Shown: positions 21,748-27,375 of the stretch, one piece after another
Layout of the letters: each line of letters begins with the position of its first letter
Numbering within the stretch: the stretch's first letter is position 1
Source of the DNA: Escherichia coli
Lineage (GTDB): Bacteria; Pseudomonadota; Gammaproteobacteria; Enterobacterales; Enterobacteriaceae
Direction: 5' to 3' (one strand)
Assembly (NCBI RefSeq): GCF_003790525.1
Contig: NZ_CP033633.1
Length of the DNA stretch: 64,000 nucleotides
Program-made: the position numbers and the translations under genes
The notes under the pieces: generated by a model
Database searches by the model: none
Told to the model about the DNA's origin: nothing
What the model saw: only the letters and a program-made list of their open reading frames with translations

Positions 21748-21778
21748 CTGTACATATAACCACTGGTTTTATGTACAG
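21748..21778. promoter_or_regulatory. Overlapping double LexA (SOS) box of the colicin promoter
   Basis: CTGTACATATAACCACTGGTTTTATGTACAG, two overlapping CTGT-N8-ACAG-like boxes upstream of cba. Confidence 0.55.
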
Positions 21779-21816
21779 ATCAAAAATTACGCCGCTGTGT
21801 TTTCTCTGTCAAGACT

Positions 21817-22377
21817 GTGGATTTCAATTTTTGTGAAAACGATCAAAAAACAGGCACTCACACCACGTGCTATTCTCGCCTGATACCACAAAAAACTGCA
21901 CAAGCATTACTGGTCAGGACGGCAGGAAGAATGCCCGCCGGCCAGCAGACTCACCGGCTGGTTCCGCTCTCGGACTCCTGGTACGTCAGCCAGCTGCAGA
22001 CGATAGTGGCCACACTGAAAATCCCCATGGAACGGCGTAATAAACGAACAGGCAGGACAGAGAAAGCGCGGATCTGGGAAGTGACGGACAGAACGGTCAG
22101 TACCTGGATTGGGGAAGCGGTTGCCGCCGCTGCCGCTGATGGTGTGACGTTCTCTGCCCCGGTCACGCCACATACGTTCCGCCATTCCTATACGATGCAC
22201 ATGCTGTATGCCGGTATACCGCTGAAGGTCCTGCAGAGCCTGATGGGGCATAAGTCCATCAGCTCAACGGAAGTCTACACGAAGGTGTTTGCGCTGGATG
22301 TGGCTGCCCGGCACCGGGTGCAGTTTTCGATGCCTGAGTCCGATGCGGTCACAATGCTGAAAAACAGACACGCATAA
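21817..22377 (+). pseudogene. Duplicated 3' fragment of resD (no N-terminus)
   Basis: From about 21909 the DNA is a near-identical direct repeat of 19515-20055; the N-terminal 33 residues of the ORF are unrelated. Confidence 0.7.
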
Positions 22378-22513
22378 TTCATAAATCATAATTATGAATT
22401 GTGATTTATTCTGTAAAAAAGAGACCACTGCAATATGTGATCTCTTGTATGCAAGGGGGCTTAAACAGTATGAATTCACAAGTGTGATTTCATAAGTAAT
22501 AACTTTTTGATTA

Positions 22514-22789
22514 TTATGTTAGTGTTTTTAAGTATTGCTCAAGGGCTACTCTGACGATGGCACTTACATTTTTTGGATCTTTACCATTGCGTTTATTCCT
22601 CAATGCCAGATCTTCTATTGTGACAAGCATGCTTTCACCAAGAGAGATTGTCGTCCGACATTGTTTTTCTGGTTCGGTTTTTTCCGGCGCGCCGTATGGT
22701 TTATCCGCAAGGCGCTGAGCCAGAGCCTCTGCTTGTTCTACCGTAACTGCAGCTCTGTTTAATGCTTGCTGGCTGGGTTTCTTCACCAT
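22514..22789 (-). CDS. ParG-like ribbon-helix-helix centromere-binding protein
   Basis: 91 aa directly downstream of and overlapping the ParA-like ATPase gene; C-terminal RHH-like segment. Confidence 0.5.
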   Translation of the reverse strand: MVKKPSQQALNRAAVTVEQAEALAQRLADKPYGAPEKTEPEKQCRTTISLGESMLVTIEDLALRNKRNGKDPKNVSAIVRVALEQYLKTLT

Positions 22790-23427
22790 GGGCCAAATAC
22801 CTCATTCATTAAATGTTCAATTTCTGCTTTGGCTGCTGTATTGTTCGTTTCTACTACACCGGTGCCGTTGCTCATGCAATCGCGATAGACTTTTCTGAAA
22901 CAAATAACTGAATCCAGAACTTGAATTGTTGGGAATTCTTCAAGATATTCAAGGAATTCTTTTCTCTCATTTCCCCTCAAAACCGGATTGGTTGTTGCCA
23001 TACTTTGTAAACAATAAACCTTAAGTTCCGGGTTAAGGTTACGCATTGCGTCTATCTGTTGTTCTAGTTCTGTAAGAGTATCCAGATCTGGTTGAGAACA
23101 CTGTAGTGGCGCAATTATTTGATGTGCGACAACTCCACTCGTTATGAATTCCTTTGAGTTTCTTCCTGCGACATCCACTATTACATCATCGAACTTTTCA
23201 TTCAGAGCCTGTAGTGTTTGTGTCAGATTATCAAATTTCTCAACAAGAGTTATTGCTGGTAAAAGTCCTGCAGCTTCTCGTTCCGCATGATGTTTTGCGG
23301 CTGTTCGTTGTAGATCTCCGTTTAACAGGCAGACTTCCCTTCCTTTATTTGCGAGAGCAATAGCCAGGTTTGATGCAATGGTAGTTTTCCCTGAACCACC
23401 TTTGTTCCCACCAACTACAGTAATCAT
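22783..23427 (-). CDS. ParA/ParF-family partition ATPase (type Ib)
   Basis: 214 aa; deviant Walker A GGNKGGSGKTT. Confidence 0.8.
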   Translation of the reverse strand: MITVVGGNKGGSGKTTIASNLAIALANKGREVCLLNGDLQRTAAKHHAEREAAGLLPAITLVEKFDNLTQTLQALNEKFDDVIVDVAGRNSKEFITSGVVAHQIIAPLQCSQPDLDTLTELEQQIDAMRNLNPELKVYCLQSMATTNPVLRGNERKEFLEYLEEFPTIQVLDSVICFRKVYRDCMSNGTGVVETNNTAAKAEIEHLMNEVFGPW

Positions 23428-23429
23428 TG

Positions 23430-23655
23430 CAACCTCATAAATGTGATGTGTGAAGTATGATGATATTTTGACACGGTAACCTGAGGTGTCAATATGCGTT
23501 CATATTTATGAAGTATGAAACATGAAGTGTTTCATATGATGTAATAAATAATACTTGTGTTTTGTGATTTCATAACTATGATAGTACTCAAATTGAGTAT
23601 TACCTTGCAACCAGAAACAGTGATTTACTCAGATTGAGTATTTAAGGGGCTATAG
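23430..23655. promoter_or_regulatory. Divergent promoter / candidate centromere region with repeats
   Basis: Repeats TGAAGTATGA and ACTCAAATTGAGTATTA / ACTCAGATTGAGTATTTA between the divergent parA-like and parM genes. Confidence 0.4.
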
Positions 23656-24627
23656 ATGAACGTATACTGCGATGATGGTTCAACAACAATCAAGTTGGCA
23701 TGGAATGACAATGGGAAAATCAGTAAGTCGTTGTCGCAAAACTCATTTCGTCATGGATGGAAGGTTGACGGGTTAGGGATTCGCCAGACATTTAACTATG
23801 AACTGGATGGTAAAAAATACACGTATGATGAAGTTAGCAACCAATCTATTCTTACGACTCATATTGAGTATCAATATACGGATGTTAACCTGTTAGCTGT
23901 GCATCACGCTTTACTGAATAGTGGATTAGTGCCTCAGCCTGTATCATTGACTGTGACTTTGCCTATCAGTGAGTTCTACACGAAAGAGTGTCAAAAAAAT
24001 GAACTCAACATTCAGCGTAAAATTGAGAATTTAATGAGGCCGATTCGTCTTAATAAAGGCGATGTTTTCACCATTGAACACGTTGATGTGATGCCTGAAT
24101 CATTGCCAGCTGTGTTTTCTCGTCTGGTCATGGATAAAGTTGGTCAGTTCGAAAAATCGCTGGTAGTTGATATTGGCGGCACTACGCTTGATGTTGGTGT
24201 TATCGTTGGTCAATTTGACTCTGTAAGTGCCATTCATGGTAATTCTGGCATTGGTGTGTCTTCAGTTACGAAAGCTGCAATGAGTGCATTGCGCATGGCA
24301 TCCAGTGATACCAGTTTCCTCGTTGCAGATGAATTGATTAAACGTCGTAATGACCCGGACTTTGTTCGGCAGGTTATAAATGACGAAACAAAAACTGATC
24401 TGGTCCTTAATACCATTGAGGGGGCTATTGCCAGTCTGGGGGAGCAAGTAGTCAATGAGCTCGGTGATTTTCATCATGTGAATCGTGTTTATGTTGTCGG
24501 TGGTGGGGCACCGTTGATCTATGATTCGATAAAAACGGCATGGCACCATCTTGGGCAAAAAGTAGTGATGATGGAGTCGCCACAGACAGCACTGGTTGAA
24601 GCTATCGCGGCTTTCAAAGAGGAGTAA
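23656..24627 (+). CDS. parM: ParM/StbA actin-like segregation ATPase (type II partition)
   Basis: 323 aa; DDGSTxIK N-terminus and DIGGTTLD phosphate-binding motif, colinear with R1 ParM. Confidence 0.85.
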   Translation: MNVYCDDGSTTIKLAWNDNGKISKSLSQNSFRHGWKVDGLGIRQTFNYELDGKKYTYDEVSNQSILTTHIEYQYTDVNLLAVHHALLNSGLVPQPVSLTVTLPISEFYTKECQKNELNIQRKIENLMRPIRLNKGDVFTIEHVDVMPESLPAVFSRLVMDKVGQFEKSLVVDIGGTTLDVGVIVGQFDSVSAIHGNSGIGVSSVTKAAMSALRMASSDTSFLVADELIKRRNDPDFVRQVINDETKTDLVLNTIEGAIASLGEQVVNELGDFHHVNRVYVVGGGAPLIYDSIKTAWHHLGQKVVMMESPQTALVEAIAAFKEE

Positions 24628-24631
24628 TATT

Positions 24632-25024
24632 GTGGACGATGAACGGAAAAGGAAAAAATTCACACTTTATCTGCATCCGGAAAAAGCTGCAGACTTTCAA
24701 ACTTTGGAAGCGATAGAGTCCGTTCCGCGTTCTGAGCGTGGTGAGCTGTTCCGGAATGCATTTATTTCTGGAATGGCGTTACACCAACTTGATCCTCGCC
24801 TGCCTGTATTGCTGACTGCCATTTTGAGCGAGGAGTTTTCAGCAGATCAGGTTGTAACCTTACTCAGTCAGACGACTGGATGGAAGCCTTCTCAGGCCGA
24901 TATCAGAGCTGTGTTGACTGAACTCGGTGCTTCGCAATCTGCTGAAAAAATGCCTCCTTCTGCTACTGATTCGGTGCAGGAGGCAATGAATGATGTGCGC
25001 CTTAAAATGCAAAAATTATTCTGA
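24632..25024 (+). CDS. parR: ParR/StbB-like adaptor protein
   Basis: About 130 aa from GTG at 24632, immediately after parM; resembles R1 ParR in the ERSxL...DPR...LL region. Confidence 0.65.
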   Translation: MDDERKRKKFTLYLHPEKAADFQTLEAIESVPRSERGELFRNAFISGMALHQLDPRLPVLLTAILSEEFSADQVVTLLSQTTGWKPSQADIRAVLTELGASQSAEKMPPSATDSVQEAMNDVRLKMQKLF

Positions 25025-25028
25025 TATA

Positions 25029-26300
25029 TCAGAATGAAGCAATGGGGATCTCAGTCCATTGTGTTGTATACGAAGGCGAGAGCATTTCCCGTTTCATTTG
25101 CCATTCAGGGGCGGTTCCTCGCCCCGCAAACCACACTTTCCCTTTTCCCGACTGGTTCAGTTCATCGAGTGTTTTCATTAACTTTTCACTGTTTTTACGG
25201 GGCTGGATTTCATCAAATAATCCCGGCTGCGCTATACCCGATGGTGTGAAATCAGCCAGCATGACTCCTGCCTTCATATAGCGGTACCCTTCACGCCAGA
25301 CATGGTTTAAGGCTCTGCATGCGGCGGCAATAATGTCCCGGCTGTCCTGTGTGGGCAATGGAAGCTTTTCCACAGCGGCATTGCTGTAACAGGGTTCTTT
25401 TACTGCAAAGGGGGATGTCCGTACAAATGTCGTCACCTGCCGGCAATACTGACGCTCCCCACGTAGTTTCTCTGCGGCCCGCTCTGCATACTGAACAACA
25501 GCCTGGTGCATGGCATCTTTGTCTGTGATTCGTTCACCAAAACTGCGACTACAGACAATCTGCTGTTTTGCCGGTGGTGCTTCTTCCAGGGATATGCAGG
25601 ACTCGCCGTTGAGTTCGCGTACCGTACGCTCAAGAATGACGCTGAAGTTTTTCCGGATGAATGCCGTGTTAGCCTGCGCCAGCTGCAGTGCTGTGTTAAT
25701 ACCCAGCGCATTCAGCTTTTCCGTCAGTCTGCGTCCTACTCCCCAGACCTCACCAACTGGCTGCAGTCCCAGTAGCTTCAAGATCCGATTACGGTTTTCT
25801 GCCGTCAGCGCGACCACACCGGAAAACTGTGGCCATTGCTTTGTTGCCCACTGTGCACTTTTAGCCAGCGTTTTTGTAGGCGCAATGCCCACCCCCATGG
25901 TGAGTCCTGTCCAGCTCTTTACCTGTTCCCTGAGCTGATGACCAAAAAACTCCGGAGAGATGCAATGATTTATCCCCCGCAAATCAATAAACATTTCATC
26001 AATTGAGTAGGGCTCAACTGCGGGAGAAAGCGACTCCAGAACAGCCATGACCCGTTGGCTCATGCTGTGGTACAGCGCATAATTGCTGGAAAATACATGT
26101 ATTTTCTTCTCCAGGCGCATCTGTCTCACCTGAAACCAGGGCTGCCCCATTCTGATGCCAAGGGCTTTTGCCTCCGGGCTGCGCGCGATCACACAGCCAT
26201 CGTTATTGCTGAGTACGATGACCGGTTCGTTGCGAAGGTCCGGGCGGAAAACTTTTTCACATGAGGCGTAGAAACTGTTGATATCAGCCAGTGCAAACAT
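25029..26300 (-). CDS. impB: Y-family error-prone DNA polymerase subunit ImpB (UmuC/MucB-like)
   Basis: 423 aa; N-terminal ALADINSFYASCE typical of UmuC. Confidence 0.9.
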   Translation of the reverse strand: MFALADINSFYASCEKVFRPDLRNEPVIVLSNNDGCVIARSPEAKALGIRMGQPWFQVRQMRLEKKIHVFSSNYALYHSMSQRVMAVLESLSPAVEPYSIDEMFIDLRGINHCISPEFFGHQLREQVKSWTGLTMGVGIAPTKTLAKSAQWATKQWPQFSGVVALTAENRNRILKLLGLQPVGEVWGVGRRLTEKLNALGINTALQLAQANTAFIRKNFSVILERTVRELNGESCISLEEAPPAKQQIVCSRSFGERITDKDAMHQAVVQYAERAAEKLRGERQYCRQVTTFVRTSPFAVKEPCYSNAAVEKLPLPTQDSRDIIAAACRALNHVWREGYRYMKAGVMLADFTPSGIAQPGLFDEIQPRKNSEKLMKTLDELNQSGKGKVWFAGRGTAPEWQMKREMLSPSYTTQWTEIPIASF

Positions 26301-26737
26301 CAGCGTAACTCCCGCGTCCTGTGTATCACGTGAGTGACAACACCAAAAATACAGATGTTTTCCGGATACAGTGTGCGGAACTCCGGGCTGTCTGAAACCG
26401 GCTCCAGTGCCGGGCGTGGGCGCAACAGCAGTCGTTTGACGGTGAACTCACCGTCGATCTCAGCGATAACGATGTCCCCGTGTTGTGGTTTTTCGGCCCT
26501 GTCCACTACCAGCAGATCACCATTCTGCACGCCAGCCTGGTTCATCGATTCACCGCTGGCGCGCAGAAAGAAGGTGGCTGCAGGTCTGCTGATGCAATAG
26601 CTGTTCAGATCCAGTTCCTGCTCAGCATAATCAGTGGCAGGCGAAGGAAAACCGGCCTGGCAACGATCGGCAAACAACGGTCGCACGTAACTGTCATCGC
26701 CTGAAGGGTCAGCCGGACGGTGATAAACGGTACTCAT
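26300..26737 (-). CDS. impA: ImpA (UmuD/MucA-like, LexA-type self-cleaving protein)
   Basis: 145 aa with S24 peptidase-like region; start overlaps the impC stop. Confidence 0.85.
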   Translation of the reverse strand: MSTVYHRPADPSGDDSYVRPLFADRCQAGFPSPATDYAEQELDLNSYCISRPAATFFLRASGESMNQAGVQNGDLLVVDRAEKPQHGDIVIAEIDGEFTVKRLLLRPRPALEPVSDSPEFRTLYPENICIFGVVTHVIHRTRELR

Positions 26738-26982
26738 GCTGCAGGCAGCCAGCTGTCGTCCTGCCAGATTTCTTCCAGCAGAGACAGGATACGTTCTTTA
26801 TCCTTGTCGTTGCGGGCTCCTGTGACAGATACAGACGGGGCGCTGCCCTGGTCTATACGCAGCCAGATTTCCGGGTAGTGTGGTTTCAGACGTTGTTCGA
26901 TTTCATTCTGTAGCGCCTGAAGTGTGCCTGATTTGAGGTTTTTTGTGCTCTGGCGGTCGAAAAGAATTTCAATGCGGATCAT
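26734..26982 (-). CDS. impC: ImpC small protein of the impCAB operon
   Basis: Start placed at MIRIEILF (26982) so that the LexA box lies upstream; 82 aa. Confidence 0.6.
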   Translation of the reverse strand: MIRIEILFDRQSTKNLKSGTLQALQNEIEQRLKPHYPEIWLRIDQGSAPSVSVTGARNDKDKERILSLLEEIWQDDSWLPAA

Positions 26983-27005
26983 GTTCTCATCTCCCTTTTC
27001 TCTTG

Positions 27006-27021
27006 CTGTATGTATATACAG
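27006..27021. promoter_or_regulatory. LexA (SOS) box upstream of impCAB
   Basis: CTGTATGTATATACAG matches CTGT-N8-ACAG. Confidence 0.75.
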
Positions 27022-27375
27022 TATTCTAATAACTGAATCCACACACAGTCAAATGTCATTATTGTGACTAAAAAACGCTCAATTCTCTGAGGGTGTGGCT
27101 GTATGCCTGCTGTGGAGTGCTGTGTCCAGCTTATCCACAGCATTTTGTGCACGGTTCTGTGGACAAAATACCTGGTTACCCAGGCCGTGCCGGCACGTTA
27201 ACCGGGCTGCATCCGATGCAAGTATGTCGCTGTCGCCGGCCTCCTCACCCGGTCACGTTTCGTCGTTCCTCCTCCACGCGCTGCGGCTTCGGGGCCGCAC
27301 CTGCATTCGTATGCGGTCGCCCGGTAACAGGTGCGGCACGGCCTGATGGAGGCCGCATGTGAGAGGAGAATTCCC

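Follow-up and report, generated by a model that had tools for sequence, protein, structure and literature searches.

A pB171-type double partition locus on a conjugative plasmid of Escherichia coli

The back-to-back arrangement of two plasmid partition systems, one of the actin type and one of the ParA type, was first reported from the Escherichia coli plasmid pB171. In the published descriptions of this plasmid, par1 (ParM/ParR) and par2 (ParA/ParB) are transcribed divergently and each affects the expression of the other, the ParB repeat arrays parC1 and parC2 are located upstream and downstream of parAB, respectively, and ParR binds to two direct repeats upstream of parM. It is likewise known from pB171 that ParB and ParR bind to DNA and repress, that the systems are active in segregation, each cassette stabilizing a test plasmid, and that ParA oscillates or positions plasmids. 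R27 (Par1/Par2), the Shigella plasmid pINV and SCP1 have also been described as replicons with two segregation systems that are active or potentially so. In the locus presented here, the two systems are placed back to back with cis-acting sites and regulation in common.

All four pB171 genes were identified, in the divergent order of pB171, in a 64-kb window, by which we mean the whole stretch of DNA that was analyzed. The genes parB (22514..22789, minus strand) and parA (22783..23427, minus strand) overlap by 7 nt and are transcribed away from parM (23656..24627, plus strand) and parR (24632..25024, plus strand), with 228 bp between the divergent start codons of parA and parM (23428-23655). 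This intergenic region, parC1 (23428..23655), carries both types of repeats and corresponds to the common centromere/operator region of the pB171 literature. The sites described for pB171 were also matched, with ParB arrays on either side of parAB and two ParR boxes before parM. Genes, gene order, ParR repeats and flanking ParB arrays are all as reported for pB171 (Ebersbach & Gerdes 2001; Ringgaard et al. 2007), which is an F-like plasmid of EPEC, whereas the best match to the locus studied here is p135-1, a conjugative IncK2/Z plasmid of E. coli from chicken that is 100% identical across the locus. The identity to pB171 was determined for the ParA and ParR proteins, and the sites were compared to the published description of pB171. 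Our analysis establishes the gene content, the protein identity to pB171, and the repeat architecture and its conservation. We conclude that the pB171-type double partition locus is almost certainly present here in intact form, on a conjugative E. coli plasmid; no observation spoke against this reading. The double locus is genuine and was rightly recognized, but it is ordinary, and of a kind that is already known.

A preliminary description of this DNA had proposed that divergent type Ib and type II systems share one repeat-bearing region, and this is borne out by the gene order, the near-identity to the pB171 proteins and the pB171 literature; the four open reading frames and the distance of 228 bp between the starts were also correctly placed. 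The combined centromere that it suggested agrees, as a combined centromere/operator, with what the literature describes for pB171 par1/par2. Its coordinates captured parAB, parMR and the central region, but stopped short of parC2, the second centromere, which lies downstream of that gene pair.

The type II system consists of ParM, a 323-aa actin-like ATPase that matches the R1 ParM structures with an E-value of 2e-76 over residues 2-295 and is annotated as ParM in RefSeq, and ParR, a 130-aa RHH centromere-binding protein. ParR is identical at 127 of 130 positions to PDB 2JD3, which is described as ParR of pB171, the three substitutions being F10Y, A104V and Q127K. We placed the start of parR at the GTG codon at position 24632 rather than at the TTG codon of a 142-aa open reading frame, since RefSeq uses the same start and PDB 2JD3 aligns over residues 1-130.

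The type Ib system consists of a Walker-type partition ATPase of 214 aa, ParA, and a protein of 91 aa, ParB. ParA has no N-terminal HTH domain, contains the deviant Walker A motif KGGSGKT at residues 9-15 and is identical in sequence to UniRef Q0H055, which is given as ParA of pB171 in a paper from 2026. The best full-length NCBIfam model was ParA_partition, with an E-value of 7e-34 and a score of 117, which is below the curated cut-off of 180, and the closest full-length match among solved structures was ParF of TP228 (E-value 1e-7, residues 8-210). Partial matches to MipZ and CbiA were obtained with Pfam.

For ParB, the Pfam RHH_1 domain was matched at residues 45-88 with an E-value of 0.0038, which is weak taken alone. 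The same domain was matched with an E-value of at most 0.1 in 24 of 27 ParB homologs and of at most 0.001 in five of the 27, the best being 2.6e-5. The top matches in a profile search of PDB were CopG and the EndoAI antitoxin, both sub-threshold (E-values of 0.1 or more). EndoAI likewise has the RHH fold. The AF2 model of ParB (pLDDT 70.7) contains helices at residues 52-68 and 75-90, after a conserved RTTISL segment, and ParB of pB171 is classified as an RHH protein in reviews. A Foldseek search of the AF2 monomer model against PDB retrieved nothing below an E-value of 3, probably because the RHH monomer is tiny and its strand is formed only in the dimer, and a single-sequence search of solved structures gave only a chance match to an adenylate cyclase. 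No NCBIfam model matched ParB or ParR.

The putative binding sites for ParB are repeats of the motif TRTGAW. Repeats of the type ATGAAGT had been noted previously; the family is real, although ATGAAGT itself occurs in exact form only twice (23508 and 23522), as part of the larger TRTGAW family. The 228-bp parC1 region contains 11 copies of TRTGAW, as compared to averages of 0.53 in windows of the same size across the 64 kb and of 2.2 in local dinucleotide shuffles, none of which reached 11 copies in 2000 trials. The first cluster in parC1 (23442..23462) consists of three 7-bp units, TGTGATG TGTGAAG TATGATG, between the -10 element of the parAB promoter-like site P2 and the start of parA, while the second (23493..23583) consists of 13 consecutive 7-bp units in one register, eight of which are TRTGAW in direct or inverted orientation. 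Nine copies were found downstream of parB, at 22378-22513, a count that was also reached in none of 2000 shuffles. Here, the proximal cluster (22469..22503) contains TATGAAT TCACAAG TGTGATT TCATAAG in 7-bp phase and alternating orientation, and the distal cluster (22378..22412), beyond the putative parAB terminator, contains TTCATAA ATCATAA TTATGAA TTGTGAT, with four matches to TRTGAW. Overall, the 7-bp phasing of the TRTGAW units is partial. No region elsewhere in the 64-kb window matched the TRTGAW counts of parC1 and parC2.

The arrays are conserved beyond E. coli, in that relatives with a ParB of only about 70% identity have kept arrays of TATGAAK/TGTGATK on both sides of parAB, with ten tandem TATGAAT units in Providencia and five tandem CATCATA units in Edwardsiella. 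The distal segment of parC2 is also present after resD-like integrase genes, in plasmids without parAB, and it has persisted in ColBM plasmids from which parAB is absent. TRTGAW-rich spots were in addition observed at 16529-16633, outside the 7-bp phase, and at 19985-20090, where the left part of parC2 is duplicated.

We infer the exact positions of the promoters, the terminator and the IHF site from the sequence. The promoter scan identified P2 (23465..23492, minus strand), which combines TTGACA with TG-CAAAAT over a spacer of 16 nt (10 of 12 matches) and has ParB units on either side, a geometry that suggests autorepression of parAB. Since the parC1 array brackets the parAB promoter, the partition complex would double as a repression complex. 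No sigma-70 match for parMR was found in the promoter scan; a weak candidate, read manually, consists of TTGTGT (23555-23560) and TATGAT (23577-23582) with a spacer of 16 nt and overlaps the second ParB unit cluster. The parAB operon probably ends at a terminator-like hairpin (22413..22446, minus strand) with a 10-bp stem, AAGAGAUCAC/GUGGUCUCUU, followed by UUUUUU. Its 71-nt context has a folding energy of -14.7 kcal/mol and a z-score of -3.0, and an equally good fold was obtained in none of 200 shuffles. Adjacent to parB, a candidate IHF site, AATCAAAAAGTTA (22500..22512, minus strand), is an exact match to WATCAANNNNTTR. IHF reportedly has a role in par2.

Two motifs of the form ACTCA(A/G)ATTGAGTATT had been indicated between the two operons, and both were confirmed as 17-nt sequences that are alike at 16 of 17 positions and located 41 bp apart. 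These putative ParR boxes, R1 (TACTCAAATTGAGTATT, 23585..23601, plus strand) and R2 (TACTCAGATTGAGTATT, 23626..23642, plus strand), the latter 14 bp before the start of parM, match the direct repeats in the pB171 literature. With at most one mismatch, ACTCANNNTGAGTA was found seven times in the 64 kb, as compared to 0.53 expected, and six of the seven matches were within 23585-23870. Relatives retain ACTCA-N3-TGAGTA boxes before parM.

The exact sequence ACTCA-N3-TGAGTA occurs only three times in the 64-kb window: in R1, in R2 and in a palindrome, ACTCATATTGAGTA, inside parM (23857..23870, plus strand; codons T68-Y72, +202). Eight of the sampled lineages encode T-H-I-E-Y at this position, and in every one of them the palindrome was nucleotide-identical or differed in the free spacer only, as compared to a synonymous codon identity of 42% over the rest of parM, and synonymous conservation in the 8-codon window around it was second in parM, behind only the first codons of the gene. 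The distance to R2 is constant at 230-231 bp, or about 22 helical turns. It is conceivable, though we consider it somewhat doubtful, that the par1 centromere/operator has a third, intragenic ParR site; if so, ParR bound to this box could draw the 5' part of parM, by looping or wrapping, into a partition or repression complex. A literature search for a ParR site within parM retrieved unrelated papers only; the primary pB171 papers were outside this search, and such a site may already be known.

The type II system can be compared to parMRC of plasmid R1. In both, an actin-like ParM is accompanied by a small RHH ParR, and the centromere, upstream of parM, overlaps with the control region of the operon. 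The parC site of R1 is composed of ten iterons. Unlike R1, the locus studied here has only two ParR boxes upstream, whose core is palindromic, and its control region is common to a second partition system. A minimum of two 11-bp repeats is described as a requirement for R1 ParR.

The type Ib system resembles parFGH of TP228 and delta/omega of pSM19035 in having a small Walker-type ATPase and a centromere-binding protein, putatively of the RHH type, whose N-terminal part is flexible, and it further resembles delta/omega in having contiguous 7-bp units, direct and inverse, that overlap the promoter. The omega heptads are given as 5'-WATCACW-3', and several units here fit that heptad literally (TGTGATT, on the other strand AATCACA). 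No sequence similarity was detectable between ParB and either ParG or omega. Two arrays flank the operon here, unlike in parFGH and delta/omega, and according to published work ParB can pair centromeres in the absence of ParA, in which it is described as differing from omega. The IncI1 par locus of pESBL, from a Tn-seq study, was considered as an identity for the system and rejected, since its ParB is reported to bind to GATAACAA octamers and the locus is described as distinct from pB171.

The two systems may be envisaged to work as follows. Dimers of the putative RHH protein ParB would bind to the TRTGAW arrays, direct and inverted and partly in 7-bp phase, with parC2 downstream of parAB serving as the second array. 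Centromere-bound ParB would stimulate nucleoid-bound ParA-ATP, and the plasmid copies would be spaced regularly over the nucleoid as a result. ParR is predicted to bind to the two ACTCA-N3-TGAGTA boxes directly upstream of parM, which would both repress parMR and form a complex that caps the ParM filaments, and the filaments would push the sister plasmids apart. As the ParB array reaches the first ParR box, both systems have one control region in common, and cross-regulation is possible.

In a search of 72,556 PLSDB plasmids, the whole locus was recovered at an identity of at least 95% in about 990, and the two cassettes were nearly always found together, co-occurring in about 975-990 records. 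The divergent module was identified on plasmids typed as IncK2/Z, IncFIA, IncFIB and IncHI1B, and in plasmids of Enterobacter, Citrobacter, Yersinia, Providencia, Photorhabdus and Edwardsiella, with ParB proteins that are 70-85% identical. Given these numbers and the several replicon types, the arrangement is not as uncommon as the preliminary description had held. Nor do the data support its suggestion of a fusion of two replicons as a recent event, since the module resides on varied replicons and recurs in six other genera.

That this arrangement was left behind as a scar when two replicons fused recently, with each replicon having contributed its own partition system, is accordingly very unlikely, although the cassettes do exist apart. 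Type Ib cassettes of this family without ParMR were found in Aeromonas (L006), Erwinia (L012) and Salmonella diarizonae (L013), ParMR of this clade occurs without this ParAB in Serratia (L018), and it occurs in tandem with a different ParA pair at L017 and L019, which indicates that the modules are separable and were joined at some time. However, the joined module is conserved as a unit in the six other genera and on several replicon types, and the intergenic region forms one array, interleaved and co-adapted, and not two control regions placed end to end. All this argues that the junction is old and gives no information on whether this plasmid arose as a cointegrate.

Nor is it at all probable that only one cassette works and that the other is a decaying passenger or solely a transcriptional regulator. 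Redundancy could permit such decay, and a small contribution of one par system in some plasmids with two is discussed in the literature for SCP1 and pINV, but all four open reading frames are intact here, functional and structural studies of pB171 used a ParA of the same sequence and a ParR that is 98% identical, both cassettes have been kept at an identity of at least 95% in the PLSDB plasmids, and the cis-acting sites of both systems are conserved in distant relatives. The idea, raised in the preliminary description, that the 214-aa ATPase might be a MinD/Soj-like (or MipZ-like) paralog with no centromere and no relation to plasmid partition, to which the name MipZ in some RefSeq records, the partial Pfam matches and the NCBIfam score below the cut-off might seem to lend weight, is refuted as far as sequence analysis goes, because the protein is exactly that listed as ParA of pB171, its gene is translationally coupled to that of a putative RHH partner, its operon has cognate repeat arrays on either side, and its best full-length matches are ParA_partition and ParF.

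[quoted passage not shown] In RefSeq, ParB is labeled "hypothetical protein", and ParA is labeled "AAA family ATPase" or "division plane positioning ATPase MipZ". Under these labels, the model system goes unrecognized in about a thousand of the resistance and virulence plasmids that have been sequenced. The relatives supply natural variation in both the ParB unit arrays and the ParR boxes, and the intragenic box in parM may merit testing, as it would refine how a two-repeat parC builds the ParR scaffold.

The ORF listing and direct reading of the sequence agree on the four genes and the divergent layout of the preliminary description. The type Ib cassette, par2, is on the minus strand and consists of parA (22783-23427, 214 aa) and, 3' of it, parB (22514-22789, 91 aa); the two reading frames share 7 nt, which suggests that they are translationally coupled. 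The type II cassette, par1, is on the plus strand and consists of parM (23656-24627, 323 aa) followed by parR, with 228 bp between the start codons of parA and parM. For parR, the mechanical ORF call begins at a TTG codon at 24596; a GTG codon at 24632 is preceded by an AGGAG motif and gives a 130-aa product that is the same as in the RefSeq annotation and aligns end to end with a solved protein. Directly after parR is a minus-strand operon (25029-27042) for a DinI-like protein, UmuD and a Y-family DNA polymerase, as named in RefSeq for the matching genes of p135-1, the IncK2/Z plasmid that is the best match.

The solved protein is PDB 2JD3, the ParR of pB171 according to a published paper, to which the window ParR is identical at 127 of 130 positions over the full length. 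An exact sequence look-up of the 214-aa ATPase returned a UniRef name with the representative Q0H055, which is listed as "pB171 ParA" in a 2026 survey. ParM matched the ParM structures of plasmid R1 (E 2e-76). The best full-length matches of ParA, which has a deviant Walker A motif (KGGSGKT), were the family ParA_partition (E 7e-34) and, among structures, ParF of TP228. For ParB, the single sequence gave a weak match to Pfam RHH_1 over residues 45-88 (E 0.0038), and 24 of 27 homologs, with identities down to 53%, matched this family at E<=0.1. CopG and the EndoAI antitoxin, the latter also of the RHH fold, head the list of PDB matches to the ParB family profile, both below threshold. The AF2 model of ParB has two helices that follow an invariant R-T-T-I-S-L segment in chain order; a Foldseek search with this model was uninformative.

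The shared region, parC1, carries repeats as previously described, and the arrays are more extensive than was noted. Two 17-nt ParR boxes, R1 (TACTCAAATTGAGTATT, at 23585) and R2 (TACTCAGATTGAGTATT, at 23626), were read upstream of parM. Their core, ACTCA-N3-TGAGTA, has seven matches with at most one mismatch in the 64 kb, as compared to 0.53 expected, and six of these are within 23585-23870. The repeats described as ATGAAGT-type belong to a family that is best written TRTGAW, with 11 copies in the 228 bp between parA and parM (average of equal-sized windows of the 64 kb, 0.5) and nine in the 136 bp from the parB stop codon to an integrase gene fragment (average 0.3). Neither count was reached in any of 2000 dinucleotide shuffles of the same AT-rich regions. 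These ParB-type units occur in direct and inverted orientation and partly in a 7-bp phase: in parC1, 13 consecutive units are in one register (23493-23583) and three at 23442-23462, while parC2, downstream of parB, has four (22469-22496) and further units at 22378-22405. Another AT-rich segment (16529-16633) has six TATGAT/TATGAA hexamers out of the 7-bp phase, which are probably unrelated to ParB.

A promoter scan gave a good match to a sigma-70-like parAB promoter, P2 (23492-23465, minus strand; TTGACA and TG-CAAAAT, 16 nt apart), located exactly between the two parC1 clusters. The parC1 array reaches as far as the first ParR box, overlapping the one plausible set of -35/-10 elements for parMR. 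An exact IHF consensus (AATCAAAAAGTTA, 22500-22512, minus strand) is located directly after the parB stop codon, beside parC2, and none was found in parC1. The parAB transcript probably ends between the two parC2 clusters, at a predicted terminator (22446-22413, minus strand) with a hairpin (dG -14.7 kcal/mol, z -3) and a T-run.

Part of the mechanism that we propose draws on what is generally known about type Ib and type II partition. Its binding and activity steps follow reports on pB171 and related systems, and its geometry follows the window. ParB dimers would coat the unit arrays cooperatively and, since P2 has parC1 units on both sides, the partition complex would at the same time act as a repression complex. 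ParA-ATP on the nucleoid would be stimulated by ParB-bound centromeres, thereby positioning the plasmid, and ParR bound at R1 and R2 would both repress parMR and nucleate ParM filaments.

The closest described analogue for the ParB arrays is omega of pSM19035, which has contiguous WATCACW heptads overlapping promoters. Several of the window units (TGTGATT, or AATCACA on the other strand) literally match this consensus, and the 7-bp contiguity is common to both, with no detectable sequence similarity between ParB and omega. In pB171, ParB reportedly also acts as a repressor of par1, which is not its cognate operon, and a part in par2 partition is reported for IHF; the arrangement of sites in the window would agree with both roles.

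Plasmid pB171 has one type I and one type II partition locus. According to a paper that cites Ringgaard et al. (2007), the two are transcribed divergently and each affects the expression of the other. Its par2 has repeat arrays both upstream and downstream of parAB, with constructs written as parC1+ parA parB parC2+, and the upstream array also has a role in transcription regulation. Its ParB is counted, like ParG and omega, among the RHH centromere-binding proteins and pairs centromeres without ParA. Each element of the published description of the double locus was found in the window; the system is already known in detail.

The third exact ACTCA-N3-TGAGTA of the window is a palindrome, ACTCATATTGAGTA, inside parM (23857-23870, at +202), where it spells T-H-I-E-Y. 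Eight parM lineages whose proteins are 67-80% identical to the window ParM retain the intact box at this position, and its distance from R2 is constant at 230-231 bp, or about 22 helical turns. For an overlapping set of lineages, nucleotide identity averages 67% and synonymous-codon identity 42%. In the 8-codon window that surrounds the box, synonymous identity is 0.71, as compared to a gene mean of 0.42 (sd 0.10), and only the first codons of parM rank higher. The codons ACT, ATT and GAG are invariant, and the flanking Thr, Gln and Tyr codons are free to vary. With the codon usage of the respective gene, the probability that T-H-I-E-Y spells the box is 2-11% per lineage. Two lineages that encode T-N-(I/V)-E-Y have no box, and in one of them the upstream boxes are degenerate; the box is also absent from the Edwardsiella lineage, which has a ParM like that of plasmid R1 and different upstream repeats. 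This pattern of conservation could reflect some other embedded signal, or the box may be a third ParR site. A literature search, which did not cover the primary pB171 papers, found no description of a ParR-like box inside parM.

The region 20056-22377 is rearranged. It includes an IS1 copy (InsB ORF, 20305-20808), a 303-aa ORF beside it (20819-21730, minus strand), which we take to resemble the N-terminal part of colicin B, and a 186-aa C-terminal integrase fragment (21817-22377); cbi, cma and cmi are close by in the best-matching plasmid. The window has two copies (22300-22450 and 19896-20042, 92.7% identity) of a resD-like integrase gene 3' end with the next 73 bp, which comprise the distal parC2 units and the terminator hairpin; the second copy abuts IS1. 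Roughly 550 PLSDB records match the parAB query in this 73-bp part only, 3' of integrase genes; the two inspected are IncF-type, with colicin M genes and without parAB. Such copies may have been left behind when a par2 was deleted.

The kind of system proposed in the preliminary description stands, as it matches the pB171 double locus; its supposed rarity and its suggested origin by replicon fusion do not. In PLSDB, a query of the whole locus matches 1564 records, and in 994 the match spans at least 80% of the query. Queried alone, parAB gave 988 near-complete records and parMR 975, so that the cassettes virtually always occur together at the identity level searched. The carriers are typed as IncK2/Z, IncFIA, IncFIB (including Salmonella Infantis plasmids of about 320 kb) and IncFIB/IncHI1B. 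The same divergent quartet, with ParB 70-85% identical, is present in six other genera (Enterobacter, Citrobacter, Yersinia ruckeri, Providencia, Photorhabdus and Edwardsiella), with arrays of the ParB-type unit kept on either side of parAB, for instance ten tandem TATGAAT in Providencia. The double module does not indicate that the window plasmid arose by fusion. We also found parAB without parMR in Aeromonas, Erwinia and Salmonella diarizonae, parMR alone in Serratia, the cassettes parted by umuDC in one metagenomic contig, and an unrelated ParA and a 124-aa protein in tandem before parMR in IncFIA plasmids. The par genes adjoin UmuD/Y-family polymerase genes in Enterobacter, Citrobacter, Erwinia and one metagenomic relative as well, and this linkage is therefore recurrent. 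From its distribution across replicons and genera, the double par module is old, common and mobile as a unit. RefSeq mostly labels its ParB "hypothetical protein" and its ParA "AAA family ATPase" or "division plane positioning ATPase MipZ", and the model par2 system of pB171 therefore goes unrecognized on about a thousand plasmids.
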